Origin: Anaeromyxobacteraceae bacterium
GTDB taxonomy: Bacteria; Myxococcota; Myxococcia; Myxococcales; Anaeromyxobacteraceae
NCBI GenBank assembly: GCA_047602405.1
Contig: JASGHJ010000002.1
Coordinates: 992,001-1,056,000, forward strand
Reading direction: 5' to 3'
Length of the DNA: 64,000 bases
Shown here in pieces: positions 14,195-23,751 of this stretch. Under the pieces are notes generated by a model, which was given only the letters and a program-made list of their open reading frames with translations, ran no database searches and was not told where the DNA came from. The position numbers were made by a program, and so were the translations under genes. Within the stretch, counting starts at the first letter, position 1. Each line of letters opens with the position of its first letter.

Positions 14195-15392
14195 ATGAAC
14201 ACGACCGAGTCCCTGGTTGAGCGCGCCAAGGCCGCCCTCACGCCCAACTACCGGCAGGCGCCGGTGGTGCTGGTGCGAGGGGAGGGCGCGCGCGTGTGGG
14301 ACGCCGAGGGGAAGGAGTACCTCGACTGCATCGCCGGCATCGCCACCGTCTCGCTCGGCCACTGCCACCCGAGGCTGGTGGCGGCGCTCGAGGAGCAGGC
14401 CCGGCAGCTGTGGCACGTCTCGAACCTCTTCTACAACCCGAGGGCGATCGAGCTCGCCGAGCGGCTCGCCCGCTCGACGAGCTGGGCGAAGCGGGTCTTC
14501 CTCTGCAACTCCGGCGCGGAGGCCAACGAGGCCCAGCTGAAGCTCGCGCGGAAGTTCCACGCCGACGCCGGCCACCCGGAGCGGAACGAGATCGTCGCCT
14601 GCACGAACTCCTTCCACGGGCGGACGATGTTCGCGCTCGCCGCGACCGGCCAGCCGAAGTACCACCACGGCTTCGAGCCGCTCGTGCCGGGCGTGAAGCA
14701 CGTGCCCTACGGCGACCTCGCCGCCCTCGAGGCGGCGCTCGGCCCGAGGACCGCGGCGTTCATCGTGGAGCCGATCCAGGGCGAGGCGGGCGTCATGCCG
14801 CCGCCCGCGGGCTACCTCGCGAAGGCCCGCGAGCTCACCAGGAAGGCGGGCGCGCTGCTCCTGCTGGACGAGGTCCAGACCGGCCTCGGCCGCACCGGGA
14901 CCATGTGGGCGCACGAGGCGGAGGGCGTGACCCCCGACCTCATGTCCTCGGCGAAGGCGCTCGCGAACGGCTACCCGATGGGCGCCATGCTCGCGACCGA
15001 GGAGGTCGGCAGCCACCTCACCCCGGGCAGCCACGCCACCACCTTCGGCGGCAACGCGCTCGGCGCCGCGGTGGGCGTCGCGGCGCTCCAGGAGATTCGA
15101 GCGGATCCTGCCCGAGGCCCGCAAGGTCGCCGAGCACCTGCGCGGGAGGCTCGCGAAGGCCGGCCCCCGGGTGACCGAGGTCCGCGGCCGCGGGTTCCTC
15201 CTCGGCGTCGTGCTCCAGGGCGTCGACGCCCCCGCGGTCGTGGGGCTCGCGCGCGAGCGAGGCCTCCTCGTGAACGCCATCGGCGACAAGGTCGTCCGGG
15301 TCGCCCCGCCCATCACCCTCACCGCCGCCGAGGCCGACCTGTGCGCGGAGCGGCTCGGCGCCGCCGTCGCCGCGGCGCCCCAGAAGGCCTGA
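14195..15392 (+). CDS. argD: Acetylornithine aminotransferase, with apparent +1 frameshift at ~15096
   Basis: FLCNSGAEANE, SFHGRT, VEPIQGEAG, DEVQTGLGRTG, SAKALANG, HATTFGGN; removing one T gives EIERILPEARK and continues into EVRGRGFLLG. Confidence 0.92.
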
Positions 15393-17412: not shown

Positions 17413-19278
<1,866 letters not shown>

Positions 19279-20667: not shown

Positions 20668-21210
20668 ATGCCGCTCCCGCGCTGGAAGAAGCTCTCCTCG
20701 GAGGTCCGGGTCCGGAACTCCTGGTGGACGTACCGCCTCGACCGCTTCGAGCTCCCCGGCGGGAAGCAGGGCGAGTACCACCACGTCCACACCCCCGGCG
20801 CCGCGATGGTCGTGCCGGTGACCGACGAAGGACGGCTGCTCCTCGTGAACCAGTACCGGTACCTCCTCGACCGGGAGAGCCTCGAGTTCCCCGGCGGCGG
20901 CGTGAAGGAGGGCCAGGCCCCCGAGGCCGCCGCCCGCGCCGAGCTCGCGGAGGAGGCGGGGGTGCAGGCCCGCGAGCTCGTCCACCTCGGCAGCTACAAC
21001 CCGTGGAACGGCGTCACCGACGAGATGTGCGAGATCTACCTCGCGCGCGGCCTCGTGCACGATCCGCACGCGCACCCCGAGGAGACCGAGACCATCGAGA
21101 ACGCGCCCCTGACGGTCGCGGACTTCGAGGCGCGCATCGCGAGCGGCGAGATCTGGGACGGCATGACGCTCGCCGCGTGGTGCCTCGCGAGGAAGTTCGT
21201 GGTGGGGTGA
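20668..21210 (+). CDS. NUDIX hydrolase (ADP-ribose pyrophosphatase-like)
   Basis: Nudix box [26 protein letters not shown]. Confidence 0.9.
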
Positions 21211-21250: not shown

Positions 21251-21273
21251 GCCAACTTGAATTCGGCAGATGT
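21251..21273 (+). repeat. 23-bp hairpin repeat, copy 1
   Basis: GCCAACTTGAATTCGGCAGATGT; identical to 23100-23122. Confidence 0.9.
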
Positions 21274-21455
21274 CCGCCGGCCCGGGGATGTGAGGAGGCG
21301 AGATGCCGTCCGGCAGGCGTGACGGATCGCCAGGAGCGCGAACCGGAAGCGTCGAAGGAGGTGCTCGGGAAGATCGACCCGACGTGCACCGCCGAGGCGG
21401 AGGGCTCCTGGCCGCGCTGGATCGACGAACTGGGCGCAGGGTGACTCGCCGGTGA

Positions 21456-22154
21456 TCACCCGCCCGCGAACGCCGCCGGCGGCACCTCGTCGACGTCCAC
21501 GAGGCCGTGGCGTCGCCAGCCGGTCCTGAGGAGCCATGAGCGCGCCTCGGCGACGAGCCGGGACTCGCCCGTGTCCGCGGCGACGCCGCGCCAGCCGTCG
21601 AACCAGCGGCCGGACGAGCGCGGGTCGATCCAGGTCGGGTCGAGCATGCGGTCCGGGTCCCGCGGTGTGTGCCGGCGGGCGTTCTGGAGCACGTAGACGA
21701 GCGCGTTGCGGACCTCGCGCGGCGTCTTCAGGATGCGGACGTGGTGCCGGTCGGAGAACACCACGCCGCTCCGGTCGAGCGCGGCGTTGAGGCCGAGCGC
21801 GATGCGGATTGAGAGCGCCTGCATCGCGCGGGAGAGCTCGCCGGGCTCCATGGCCTCGACGATCAGGTGCAGGTGGTTCGACTGTACCGAGAAGTGGACC
21901 ACCCGCGCGCCGTCGCGCCCGCGCAGGCCCTCGAGGGCGCGCCCGATCACGGCGAAGGCCGCCGAGGAGCGGAGGTTCGGCAGCCCCGGCACGGTGCGCA
22001 TCGTCACGTGCGCGGGGTGGTGCCGCGTCAGCTTCGGCCTGGCGCAGTGCGGGACCCGGTCCGGGTTCCGCGGCCGGCCGGCCCCGGGCCTCCGGCCGCC
22101 GTGGGAGCGGAAGGGAAGGTCGCGCTGGGCGGGCTTCGCGGGTCGCCTTGCCAT
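21456..22154 (-). mobile_element. Y1/HUH tyrosine transposase, RAYT (TnpA-REP)-like
   Basis: HVTMR strand, HUH motif SVQSNHLHLIVE, VFSDRHH, catalytic YxxxN (VYVLQN), N-terminal HGGRRPGAGRP; ATG at 22154 lies inside repeat copy 2; 232 aa; no tnpB adjacent. Confidence 0.85.
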
Positions 22155-22172
22155 CTTGAATTCGGCAGATGT
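22150..22172 (+). repeat. 23-bp hairpin repeat, copy 2 (overlaps the transposase start codon)
   Basis: GCCATCTTGAATTCGGCAGATGT; the single A>T difference creates the minus-strand ATG. Confidence 0.9.
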
Positions 22173-22206
22173 GTAGCAGGTAGCTCCGACAACGAGACGC
22201 GCACGG

Positions 22207-23097
22207 GTGACGCTTGGCCGGCCCGGCCGGACGTGGTGGACTCCCGCCGTGATCTCCGACTCGAGCTTCGAGCGCCCGGAGGGGTGGGCCGGGGCCGGCT
22301 TCTCCGCGATGACCCCAGGCGGCACGGAACTCGACCGCCCCAGGCCGGGCGGCCTCGAGGTCCTCCGCTGTCTGGAGCGCCGCGACGAGAGGCTGCTCGG
22401 CGTGTGGGAGGGGGCGACGGGCCGGCTCCGGTGTCTGCTGGAGAGGGCCGCGGATGCGCGGTGGACGAACGACGGTGCCGCTCTGGTCACGGTGACGGAG
22501 GAGGTCATGGTCCGCATCCTCGAGTGGCCTGCGCTGAAGGTCCTGAACTCAGCTCGGCTCGACTTCGACACGCGCCGTGGCGTGGCCGGGCTGGACCTTG
22601 TCCTCTCGGCGGCGGGTGACATGGGGATTGTCCGCCTCTGGTCGGGGCAAAGCGAGGAGGGGCTCGCCATCTTTTCCCTGCCCGACCTCCGAACGGTGGC
22701 GTGCCTCGCGTACGTCGTCGGTGAAAGCGCCAGCCTCCCGGTGTTCTCGCCCGATGGCCGGTACGTGGTGCACGTCCTGGAGCCGTTTGCCATCTGGTGG
22801 ATCGGAGATGGCGAGGTGGCGACCGACGAAGAGCCGGCCGTGGGCGGCCGGGTGCAGTGGGCGACGATCCATGTGCACGATCTCCGACAGCCCGTTCGGC
22901 ACGACGAGTACCCCGTCTTCGTGGAGGTGCCGAAAGGATGGCTGCCGTCCGAGGACGTGCGGGGAGCCAGCTGGCCGCGTGCGGTTCGCTTCACCGAGGT
23001 GGGGCGCCTCGCGTTCGACGTCCCCTGGGGAGGGACCTGCGTGACGCCCGTCCCTCCGCTTGGCTCTTGCGACGCGCCGCCCCCGCGGAAACGGTGA
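22207..23097 (+). CDS. Hypothetical cargo protein, possibly beta-propeller-like
   Basis: 296-aa ORF filling the interval between repeats 2 and 3; VFSPDGRYVV motif; more A/T-ending codons than neighbours; start uncertain (no SD). Confidence 0.55.
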   Translation: MTLGRPGRTWWTPAVISDSSFERPEGWAGAGFSAMTPGGTELDRPRPGGLEVLRCLERRDERLLGVWEGATGRLRCLLERAADARWTNDGAALVTVTEEVMVRILEWPALKVLNSARLDFDTRRGVAGLDLVLSAAGDMGIVRLWSGQSEEGLAIFSLPDLRTVACLAYVVGESASLPVFSPDGRYVVHVLEPFAIWWIGDGEVATDEEPAVGGRVQWATIHVHDLRQPVRHDEYPVFVEVPKGWLPSEDVRGASWPRAVRFTEVGRLAFDVPWGGTCVTPVPPLGSCDAPPPRKR

Positions 23098-23099
23098 CC

Positions 23100-23122
23100 G
23101 CCAACTTGAATTCGGCAGATGT
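23100..23122 (+). repeat. 23-bp hairpin repeat, copy 3
   Basis: GCCAACTTGAATTCGGCAGATGT, 2 nt after the TGA of the cargo ORF. Confidence 0.9.
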
Positions 23123-23283
23123 CGCGCGAAGGCCTGCCCGGCACCCCGGAGTGCCCATGGAACCGGAAGTTCACGCAACACGAAGGGCGCAGGAGGGCGC
23201 GACGGGGCCGATCAACAGTCGAACGGCTTGGACCGACCCCTGGAAAAGGCGCATCCGCAACACGGGTACGTCCGACGGCTCCG

Positions 23284-23751
23284 CTAGTTCCGGATGATCG
23301 CCGTCCAGACGCCCTTCACCACGACCCGACCGTGCTGGTTCGTGGTCGTGGTGGTGACTTCCAGCCAGTCGAGCGGACCGCGGTCGCGGATCGAGGTGAT
23401 CTCGCCGGTGGTGTCGAGGACGTCGCCGGGGCGCACGGGCTCGAGGAACTCGAACTCCTGCTCGCCGTGCACGAGGCGGAGCACGTTGATGGCGAGGGCG
23501 GGATCCCCGCAGGCCTTCGCGAAGGGCTCGATGGCGAAGGCGGCGGCGTAGGTGGGCGGGGCGACGACGTCCGCGGCGGCCTCGCCGGGGCCGGGGTAGG
23601 TGGCCGGGTGGTACACGGTCGGCGGGGTCTCGAAGACGTGGCCGGGTACGCCGTCGCCGACGGCGTGTACGAAGTCGCGGACGTGCTCGCGGCTCACGTG
23701 GAACCGGTAGGGACCGTACTTCTTGCCGAGGTGGCGCTTGTCGATCGGCAT
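23284..23751 (-). CDS. MaoC-like hot-dog dehydratase subunit (HadA-like)
   Basis: APPTYA, LVHGEQEFEFLEPVRPGDVL; start adjusted. Confidence 0.8.
   Translation of the reverse strand: MPIDKRHLGKKYGPYRFHVSREHVRDFVHAVGDGVPGHVFETPPTVYHPATYPGPGEAAADVVAPPTYAAAFAIEPFAKACGDPALAINVLRLVHGEQEFEFLEPVRPGDVLDTTGEITSIRDRGPLDWLEVTTTTTNQHGRVVVKGVWTAIIRN

Follow-up and report, generated by a model that had tools for sequence, protein, structure and literature searches.

The closest described systems to the locus analyzed here are REPtrons, in which a TnpA-REP or RAYT protein of the Y1 HUH fold (Escherichia coli 4ER8; class 2, PMC6006769; also PMC8266576) is flanked by a short, dispersed repeat. According to 10.1101/2021.07.10.451892, RAYTs occupy fixed chromosomal loci, have diverged paralogues, and are absent from plasmids and phages. 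The family described below shares with REPtrons the fold, the flanking dispersed repeat, enzyme-specific repeat variants, a fixed chromosomal locus, and absence from plasmids and phages, but differs in lacking a GTAG foot and a conserved stem, in having YVLQN rather than Y---NP, in a repeat that lies over the start codon, in a PafBC-type promoter box, and in exchangeable passengers. Further, the locus in our window (the whole 64,000-nt stretch of DNA that was analyzed) has no inverted doublets, and its genome holds 14 repeat copies, not hundreds. When compared with RAYT classes 2.2, 2.4, 2.5, 2.7, and 2.8, we likewise found a repeat dispersed in intergenic gaps and a low-copy, fixed-locus gene off plasmids, but neither Y---NP nor a palindromic REP with a 5' GT[AG]G foot.

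TIRtrons, whose TIRYT enzymes form TnpA-Y1 subclass 2.1 (PMC3733652), have in common with the family an inverted framing (seen at one paralogue), an SS motif after the core, and single or clustered dispersed repeats, whereas the window locus has direct copies and no GGGGWSAS, C-terminal HTH/DnaA_C domain, or NP. TnpA-Y1 class 3 (PMC6006769) shares an extended N-terminus, multiple paralogues, weak atypical repeats, and hosts of the PVC/Acidobacteria/Myxococcota type, but, judged by the signature in Table 1 of that paper, YV[VI][AENY]EQ, W[TA], and a CnGA 5' foot are absent here. IS200/IS605 enzymes (IS608 and ISDra2) have the same fold as the window HUH protein, whose family lacks YxxxQ, tnpB, subterminal hairpins, precise ends, and identical copies. 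The GAAT and TCAA of the repeat recall what we take to be the guide and cleavage words of the IS608 right end. Integrons (intI/attI/attC), in which intI is under SOS control, resemble the locus in having a recombinase-like gene beside direct sites on both sides of a variable foreign gene, and in the probable damage-type promoter; here, in contrast, the enzyme is an HUH protein and not a tyrosine recombinase, the sites do not resemble attC, junctions do not appear site-specific, and arrays are rare and short. No description of this HUH family or of HUH-run cassette arrays was found in the literature text searched; the proteins may be present, unnamed, in published data sets beyond that text.

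Results

A sequence-only reading of the window had described three direct repeats, seen nowhere else in it, around a Y1 HUH nuclease gene and a divergent 296-aa gene whose stop codon lies 2 nt before the third repeat, with no tnpB, and this description was borne out with amendments. The three copies (minus strand; copy 1, 21251–21273; copy 2, 22150–22172; copy 3, 23100–23122) are exact, no further copy with three or fewer mismatches lies in the 64,000-nt window, and the outcome in shuffles was 0/100. The unit (21251..23273, no strand assigned) runs from the start of copy 1 to the gap before a MaoC/HadA-like dehydratase gene (23284..23751, minus strand), which is a fixed flank, as is the NUDIX hydrolase gene on the other side (20668..21210, plus strand), kept both in the genome under study (G000) and in its closest relative (G010), which are ~93% alike, a degree of likeness that blurs insert edges. 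Copy 1 lies ~180 nt past the HUH stop codon, and between the two is a 41-codon ORF (21319..21444, plus strand; GC3 0.86), convergent with the HUH gene, which has no matches elsewhere in the genome or in the fetched loci and is a possible gene remnant. The HUH gene (22154–21456, minus strand; 232 aa) encodes NHLHL and YVLQN (H94-L-H96 and Y154), and its ATG (22154–22152) is part of copy 2, where the minus strand reads TTCAAG and then ATG; copy 2 also overlaps the predicted transcription start. Next to it are the PafBC-type promoter box (TGTCGG-N10-TACACA; 22170..22191, minus strand) and the passenger gene (22207..23097, plus strand), which reads as 296 aa from the GTG at 22207, although a likelier start at 22249 gives 282 aa. 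No tnpB-like ORF was seen between the NUDIX and MaoC genes. In 11/28 other members of the genus, the MaoC gene lies within 175 nt of a TPR gene, which represents the state without NUDIX and HUH.

The HUH protein has an N-terminal GGxRxGAGRP segment and C-terminal SS and WLLxxGWRR motifs. His-94, His-96, and Tyr-154 are invariant in 34/34 aligned homologues, in which YVLxN is followed by Ala, Ser, Thr, Tyr, His, Phe, Val, Trp, etc., and never by Pro. PF01797 was matched by 34/34 members (below the cut-off for the window protein itself) and was the sole domain found in them, with no HTH tail; NF047646 was also matched by 34/34, below its cut-off. An NF047646 score of 24.9 was recorded against the cut-off of 80. 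In a structure comparison, the fold matched ISDra2, IS608, and 4ER8, and the best TM score of the window protein was with E. coli TnpA-REP 4ER8. With its HUH motif, one catalytic Tyr, and TnpA fold, the protein is a member of the Y1 HUH (TnpA-Y1) group, and these data support its assignment to the RAYT/TnpA fold. The family comprises 4119 related proteins, with up to 20 paralogues per genome (in G038). Paralogues have diverged (75% and 49%), HUH genes keep fixed chromosomal places in sister species, and no homologue was found among 72,556 plasmid and 50,697 phage records. Two more RAYT-like genes in the genome, near 3.486 and 3.727 Mb of contig C2, belong to another family and gave no tblastn match.

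The repeat is not confined to this locus: its 15-nt core occurs in the genome in 11 exact copies, and in 14 with up to two mismatches, at 10 loci, all on contig C2. A second HUH paralogue is also bracketed by the repeat, and a sister repeat, present as inverted copies of which some overlap the ORF end, flanks a third (paralogue 3); this sister repeat is, further, amplified six-fold in tandem. Among homologues, where the motif had been expected to recur beside the nuclease, variants of the repeat were found upstream of the HUH gene at 33/57 loci, and our search pattern found no motif at 24/57. Within the genus, the core is present in 2/37 genomes, which are the two with the closest HUH proteins, and a sub-variant of the repeat's 5' foot is specific to each HUH gene. 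When 80 new metagenome loci were searched, the pattern derived from the genome loci gave 67 matches and its reverse gave 0; 25 of the 67 lay within 200 nt upstream, in the direction of the gene. These counts support a link between the repeat and this family of enzymes. Replication-strand bias was uninformative, with both strands represented among the copies on each side of the skew turn. Matches to a 16-mer in viral contigs (13, mostly AT-rich, with no HUH gene within 2 kb) were treated as chance, and Rfam gave no match in seven loci.

The repeat had been described as an ACATCT foot plus an imperfect hairpin, but the hairpin did not withstand analysis. At −1.5 kcal/mol and z = −0.32, the structure is marginal, and its 3' arm lacks conservation from copy to copy. 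Across 82 copies, pairing of the arms exceeded that of shuffled arms (0/200) and only marginally that of arms swapped between copies (9/200); in the 27 copies of the window's own sub-family, it was not above that of swapped arms (58/200). The hairpin was rejected as a recognition element because of its weak fold and unconserved pairing. A separate, Ssn-type hairpin lies within 70 nt 3' of 5/14 repeat copies, in one orientation only; the three other layouts of repeat and hairpin were never seen, and the background is 1.6%. Some solo copies form repeat-plus-hairpin units of 135–190 bp whose site is empty in the sister species.

The passenger gene has foreign codon use, and its product is predicted to be WD40/beta-propeller-like. 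It was found in 3/400 other genomes, two of the matches being weak, and the homologue in G133 has neither the repeat nor an HUH gene nearby. The expectation that the gene between the copies would vary while the flanks stay fixed was confirmed in G010, in which copies 2 and 3 at the same MaoC/NUDIX locus enclose an unrelated, oppositely oriented gene; this gene was found in 1/92 family genomes, namely G010 itself. G010 lacks copy 1 and has a STAS gene at the corresponding position; copy 3 is present, and the two genomes share ~70 nt next to it, toward MaoC. The PafBC-type box is kept though the passenger differs; ~25–30 nt, including the HUH promoter, separate copy 2 from the end of the swapped segment and stay in place. 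The G010 layout was also seen in four DNA sequencing runs, which contain only a relative and no precise copy-to-copy joint; no RNA run was among those listed. Elsewhere, G001 has, in order, an HUH gene, a broken small gene, a repeat, a class A beta-lactamase gene, and a repeat, and at locus L120 direct copies enclose a gene for 472 aa, and promoter-plus-start blocks are duplicated. Overall, passengers are small, orphan, or immunity-like.

Such arrangements could be those of an HUH-run integron analogue, as had been proposed, with the repeats as att sites, copy 2 as an attI-like entry, and gene-plus-repeat cassettes that are cut out as ssDNA circles and reinserted elsewhere. The exchange at a fixed locus, the genes held between repeats in G001 and L120, the nature of the passengers, and a DNA-damage promoter that parallels SOS control of intI are all consistent with this view. 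However, a swapped segment that ends short of copy 2 and leaves the HUH promoter behind does not look like a gene-plus-repeat unit. Further, passengers are found on either side of the repeat, with no fixed junction at the scattered sites, solo ones included; direct copies surround a gene at only 5/57 homologous loci, in arrays of at most one or two genes; solo copies are not enriched beside atypical genes (3/14 versus 99/400 random gaps); and no second place was found at which the repeat accompanies the same passenger. Considered together with the unconserved hairpin, these findings make an integron-like gene-capture system unlikely.

At 12/12 repeat loci compared between the genome under study and G010, the surroundings differ, and inserts that carry the repeat have their edges 11 to >100 nt away from it, to one side or the other. 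Neither precise ends nor a target duplication was consistent across these 12 loci and those of G015, G007, and G003. PMC8266576 describes TnpA-REP as cleaving both 5' and 3' of REPs. We also considered an autonomous element of IS200/IS605 or TIRtron type, in which the HUH gene and its end repeats would move as a unit with the passenger as cargo. In line with this, direct copies flank the HUH gene in the two close paralogues of the genome under study and in G019, inverted copies of the sister repeat surround paralogue 3, a 1382-bp HUH insert in G015 is absent at the G007 site, and a single genome can hold as many paralogues as noted above. In two records, homologues of the HUH protein (79%) and the passenger (60%) occur on contigs that match in length (5702 and 4012 nt), and, given this match, they probably travel together. 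But G010 has no copy 1, the G015 insert ends off the repeat and its ends differ in G003, no near-identical copies occur within a genome and none on plasmids or phages, and the HUH gene is bracketed at only 5/57 loci (three direct and two inverted), so that movement as a unit appears doubtful.

Genes often turn over where no repeat is present: between the two genomes, 44 gaps of at least 250 bp were found in 380 kb, and 41/44 had no repeat, so the passenger swap could be independent of the repeat. This is in line with a third alternative, in which the repeat serves only as an operator, bound by the HUH protein or by a regulator of the host, and has spread by local duplication, and the swap is ordinary turnover at a convergent intergenic gap. 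The repeat overlaps a promoter or start at 14/57 loci and forms no stable hairpin, and L120 has the duplicated blocks noted above. Conversely, solo copies lie in species-specific inserts far from HUH genes, some of them as the repeat-plus-hairpin units with an empty sister site, the sister repeat has undergone tandem amplification, and the catalytic His, His, and Tyr residues are invariant; we regard an operator role alone as improbable.

The PafBC box has the consensus tGTCgg(N10)tA(N3)T (PMC8635444). A box of this type lies upstream of 28/109 HUH genes, compared with 1–7 for other spacings, and the −10 element at the window locus has A as its last base where the consensus has T. In this genome, ssb-, radA-, and uvrD-like genes (names read from sequence) are preceded by the box as well, and a pafB/pafC-like pair is present; a sigma-70 scan gave no site. 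It is likely, judging from these promoter sequences, that the HUH gene is switched on by DNA damage.

Discussion

We consider that the locus represents a REPtron/TIRtron-like family not described before, whose cognate site is non-palindromic and whose passengers can be exchanged. It would work like a RAYT, but it falls outside the REP-associated RAYTs, IS200/IS605, TIRYTs, class 3, and integrons as these are defined. Our preferred reading, to which we assign a probability of roughly 55%, is that a RAYT-like HUH enzyme, induced by DNA damage, acts near the scattered non-palindromic repeat and loosens the adjacent DNA. A PafBC-type activator would turn the HUH gene on as ssDNA accumulates. The protein may recognize the ~20-nt site, perhaps through its Arg/Gly-rich N-terminus, which we take to be AT-hook-like (it has no Pfam match), on the AATT core, and, when bound at copy 2, might damp its own transcription. 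It likely binds and nicks ssDNA near the repeat; cuts at flexible 5' or 3' positions, like those of TnpA-REP, followed by strand transfer, would leave ragged insert edges. Products would often land beside Ssn-type hairpins, a possible source of ssDNA ends or structure. In this way, the repeat would be copied to new gaps, and adjoining passengers would be acquired, exchanged, or lost, with no precise cassette boundaries.

We note that known Y1 enzymes need a hairpin, which is not conserved here, and that 14 repeat copies are far below the number in typical REP families. A bolder reading, to which we give little chance, is a damage-inducible gene-capture platform in which a PafBC-driven Y1 enzyme with a non-hairpin 20-nt site would use Ssn hairpins as landing pads and exchange passengers via ssDNA, an integron analogue extending over thousands of Myxococcota/PVC-type proteins. 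The passengers named for such a platform are immunity-like genes, a beta-lactamase, and toxin-antitoxin pairs.

Two separate leads are the occurrence of a PafBC-type box in a myxobacterium and the association with Ssn hairpins. For the host role of RAYT-like domesticated transposases, this HUH family offers a testable case, with a defined, non-hairpin cognate site, a likely DNA-damage promoter, and a locus at which the adjacent gene is exchanged. If the enzyme recognizes a linear site, Y1 HUH chemistry would extend beyond hairpin recognition, and, if it drives gene exchange, it would represent stress-induced gene capture outside integrons.

Three repeat copies frame an HUH nuclease and an exchangeable passenger

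The window contains three exact copies of a 23-nt repeat (copies 1-3, at 21251, 22150 and 23100), compared with none in 100 shuffles, which surround a Y1 HUH nuclease gene and a divergent passenger, as the sequence-only reading had it. The HUH gene (22154-21456, minus strand, with NHLHL and YVLQN motifs) lies between copies 1 and 2. Its ATG at 22154 falls inside copy 2, where the repeat on the gene's strand reads ...ACATCTGCCGAATTCAAG|ATG, and the protein is therefore 232 aa long. The gap from copy 1 to the HUH stop holds a 41-codon ORF of possible coding status. The passenger ORF (22207-23097; likelier start at 22249, giving 282 aa) stops 2 nt short of copy 3, again as described earlier. The host genome, G000, is 74% GC and Anaeromyxobacter-like.

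The expectation that the gene between the copies would vary while the NUDIX and MaoC flanks stayed fixed was borne out in the closest relative, G010. G010 shares these flanks along with copies 2 and 3 and the HUH gene, but has a STAS gene at the position of copy 1 and, between copies 2 and 3, an unrelated gene (about 280-320 aa) oriented opposite to the window's passenger. Inserts with the lengths found in G010 recur in contigs from four sequencing runs, so this layout is not a misassembly. We conclude that the passenger is exchangeable. Both passengers have few relatives and foreign codon use (scores of 0.04 and 0.07 versus a genome median of 0.38). The window's passenger is a predicted WD40/beta-propeller-like protein, one of whose homologues is fused to a DMP19-like domain. 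Of 28 further members of the genus, 11 have MaoC directly adjoining the TPR gene, so NUDIX, HUH gene and passenger arrived on the G000/G010 lineage. Separately, the argD-like (15170-15392) and dnaK-like (17990-18115) genes of the window appear to be split by frameshifts, possibly sequencing errors, and are intact in G010.

Other loci also enclose genes: a class A beta-lactamase gene in genome G001 (L101:5389-6650) and a 472-aa gene at locus L120 each lie between direct repeat copies, and a HicA-containing stretch (L102; G038:C3:400300-402750) is enclosed by tandem HUH genes, each with its own repeat, in a genome with 20 family members. We also note a gene resembling the G001 beta-lactamase in sequence upstream of an HUH gene in G102 (L288).

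The repeat as a site of the HUH family

The repeat is not local to the window: copies of its 15-nt core, 11 exact and 14 near, lie at 10 loci in G000. A second G000 paralogue (75% identical) is bracketed by two core copies, and here too the ATG directly follows TTCAAG. Among 37 genomes of the genus, just two have the exact core, namely G000 and G010, the latter encoding the closest enzyme (87%); a 14-mer search added G019 (5 copies, three near copies being around its HUH gene) and 1-2 matches in 8 further genomes of 363. A looser pattern, derived from genome loci and then applied to 80 new metagenome loci, gave 67 matches, versus 0 when reversed. Of 149 HUH genes collected, 57 distinct ones had 1.5 kb of flank or more; among these, the motif lies within 350 nt upstream in 33, abuts the start codon in the gene's direction in 14, and is present at least twice at 14, counts that lean high because the pattern was tuned on the same loci. 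On these sequence comparisons, we conclude that the repeat is the cognate site of the HUH enzyme family.

An imperfect hairpin, earlier described in the repeat, was rejected as its conserved feature. The 23-mer folds weakly (-1.5 kcal/mol, z = -0.32), conservation stops two to three bases past TCAA, a few copies have a perfect stem but most lack one, and arm pairing in the window's sub-family is no better than that of arms swapped between copies (58/200). Metagenome contig L143 carries eight direct family-repeat copies around one HUH gene, several of which place TCAAG in the loop of a CCC(A/G)A / T(T/C)GGG stem.

A third G000 paralogue (49%; G000:C2:1324900-1326100, L082:3900-5100) adjoins polA and has a 33-nt sister repeat on either side, in inverted orientation; the two copies also enclose a DUF2019-like passenger absent from G010. 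G001 likewise has a family member adjoining polA. The sister repeat has 12-13 copies, six of them in an array (G000:C2:3676145-3676945) of 157-bp units in tandem; in each unit, an Ssn-type hairpin comes after a sister repeat. This hairpin is a separate repeat with 216 copies, and it flanks a 102-aa GIY-YIG gene (G000:C1:1892790-1893100, L277:1417-1725) just as hairpin repeats flank Ssn nuclease genes in the available text of PMC11893778, suggesting an Ssn-like system. It comes no more than 70 nt after the HUH repeat, in a single orientation, at 5/14 copies (background, 1.6%), at 4/7 copies in G010 (two orthologous to G000 sites), and after 7/12 sister copies (six in the one array; 2/6 loci). 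The three other layouts within 70 nt never occur among these copies, and the three window copies lack the association.

An HUH family with a candidate damage-responsive promoter

In profile searches, the HUH protein matched Pfam Y1_Tnp and NCBIfam RAYT, both below cut-off, and all 34 aligned homologues matched both profiles (NCBIfam RAYT below cut-off). In this alignment, His-94, His-96 and Tyr-154 are invariant, and the Tyr motif is YVLxN, never of the NP or xxxQ type. The structure model (pLDDT 83.5) matches ISDra2, IS200 and IS608 TnpA and, with the longest alignment, E. coli TnpA-REP. The Arg/Gly-rich N terminus of the family (GGxRxGAGRP), which we take to be AT-hook-like, is modeled with low confidence and has no Pfam match; the C-terminal tail is WLLxxGWRR, and an HTH is absent. 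The family comprises 4119 proteins at E <= 0.001 and occurs in 73/368 genomes of the class; no homologues were found in plasmid or phage records.

Overlapping copy 2 is a candidate PafBC-type box (22191-22170, TGTCGG-N10-TACACA) that fits, except at the last base, the consensus tGTCgg(N10)tA(N3)T as given in the accessible part of PMC8635444. Such boxes precede 28/109 HUH genes, compared with 1-7 at other spacings, and G000 has 17 boxes of the strict TA..T form at spacing 10, compared with 0-2 at others. Boxes in G000 also precede ssb-, radA- and uvrD-like genes (named from sequence) and several repeated genes of about 600 aa. Further, tandem pairs of WYL genes lie at two places in G000 (C1:2006840-2008900, L214, and C1:232500-234500, L216), and one pair includes HTH_PafC. 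Boxes and WYL pairs together make it likely that this myxobacterium has a PafBC regulon. The ssb gene and its promoter occur twice near the C1 start (C1:5847 and C1:20445) in opposite orientation, possibly an assembly overlap or inverted duplication.

A proposed REPtron-like unit with flexible nicking fits best

The sequence-only reading had proposed an integron-like gene-capture system run by the HUH enzyme. The swapped passenger between fixed flanks holds, but the exchanged piece appears not to be a gene-plus-site unit, because about 25-30 nt of the HUH promoter remain beside copy 2, between it and the passenger. A comparison of G000 with G010 at 12 repeat loci (4 shared, 6 G000-only, 2 G010-only) shows different surroundings in every case; inserts end 11 to >100 nt away from the repeat, with passengers on its 5' side, its 3' side or both, although the edges are blurred because the two genomes are about 93% alike. 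Further, an element in G015 (empty site in G007) ends away from the repeat, with different ends in G003; a non-HUH gene lies between direct copies at just 5/57 loci; and the G133 homologue of the passenger (48%) lies near no repeat and no HUH gene. Background turnover is high, with 44 gaps of at least 250 bp, 3 containing the repeat, in 380 kb of G010 stretches partly chosen for its presence, and atypical genes lie beside 3/14 repeat copies versus 99/400 random gaps. We therefore consider an integron analogue unlikely. That the repeat is a passive operator amid ordinary gene turnover seems improbable. An autonomous element carrying cargo is doubtful as well, although the contigs that carry a 79% HUH homologue and a 60% passenger homologue match in length in two records, which favors joint travel; the word "cargo" is absent from the available portions of PMC3337134 and 10.1101/2021.07.10.451892.

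The best fit, at a probability of roughly 0.55, is a REPtron-like unit with flexible nicking, for which we infer all enzymatic steps. The Y1 enzyme would be mostly sedentary, likely induced by DNA damage, and would bind its own site, thereby damping its own promoter. It would nick and strand-transfer at a flexible distance from the site, as does TnpA-REP, which acts 5' and 3' of REPs (PMC8266576, in part). Flexible nicking would spread the site, leaving its flanks ragged, and destabilize adjacent DNA, so that passengers could be gained or replaced.

The unit would work like a RAYT/REPtron or TIRtron yet lacks the features that define them. Compared with the accessible descriptions, it differs from REP-associated RAYTs (NP is absent, and the repeat lacks both a GTAG foot and a stem; PMC6006769), from TIRtrons/TIRYTs (no HTH; no GGGGWSAS in the repeat; PMC3733652), and from TnpA-Y1 class 3, whose signature is absent (PMC6006769). 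The literature searched, with figures and subscription papers out of reach, yielded no published account of this family. Together with its repeat, the HUH family would represent a variant, new to that literature, within the REPtron/TIRtron-like kind.
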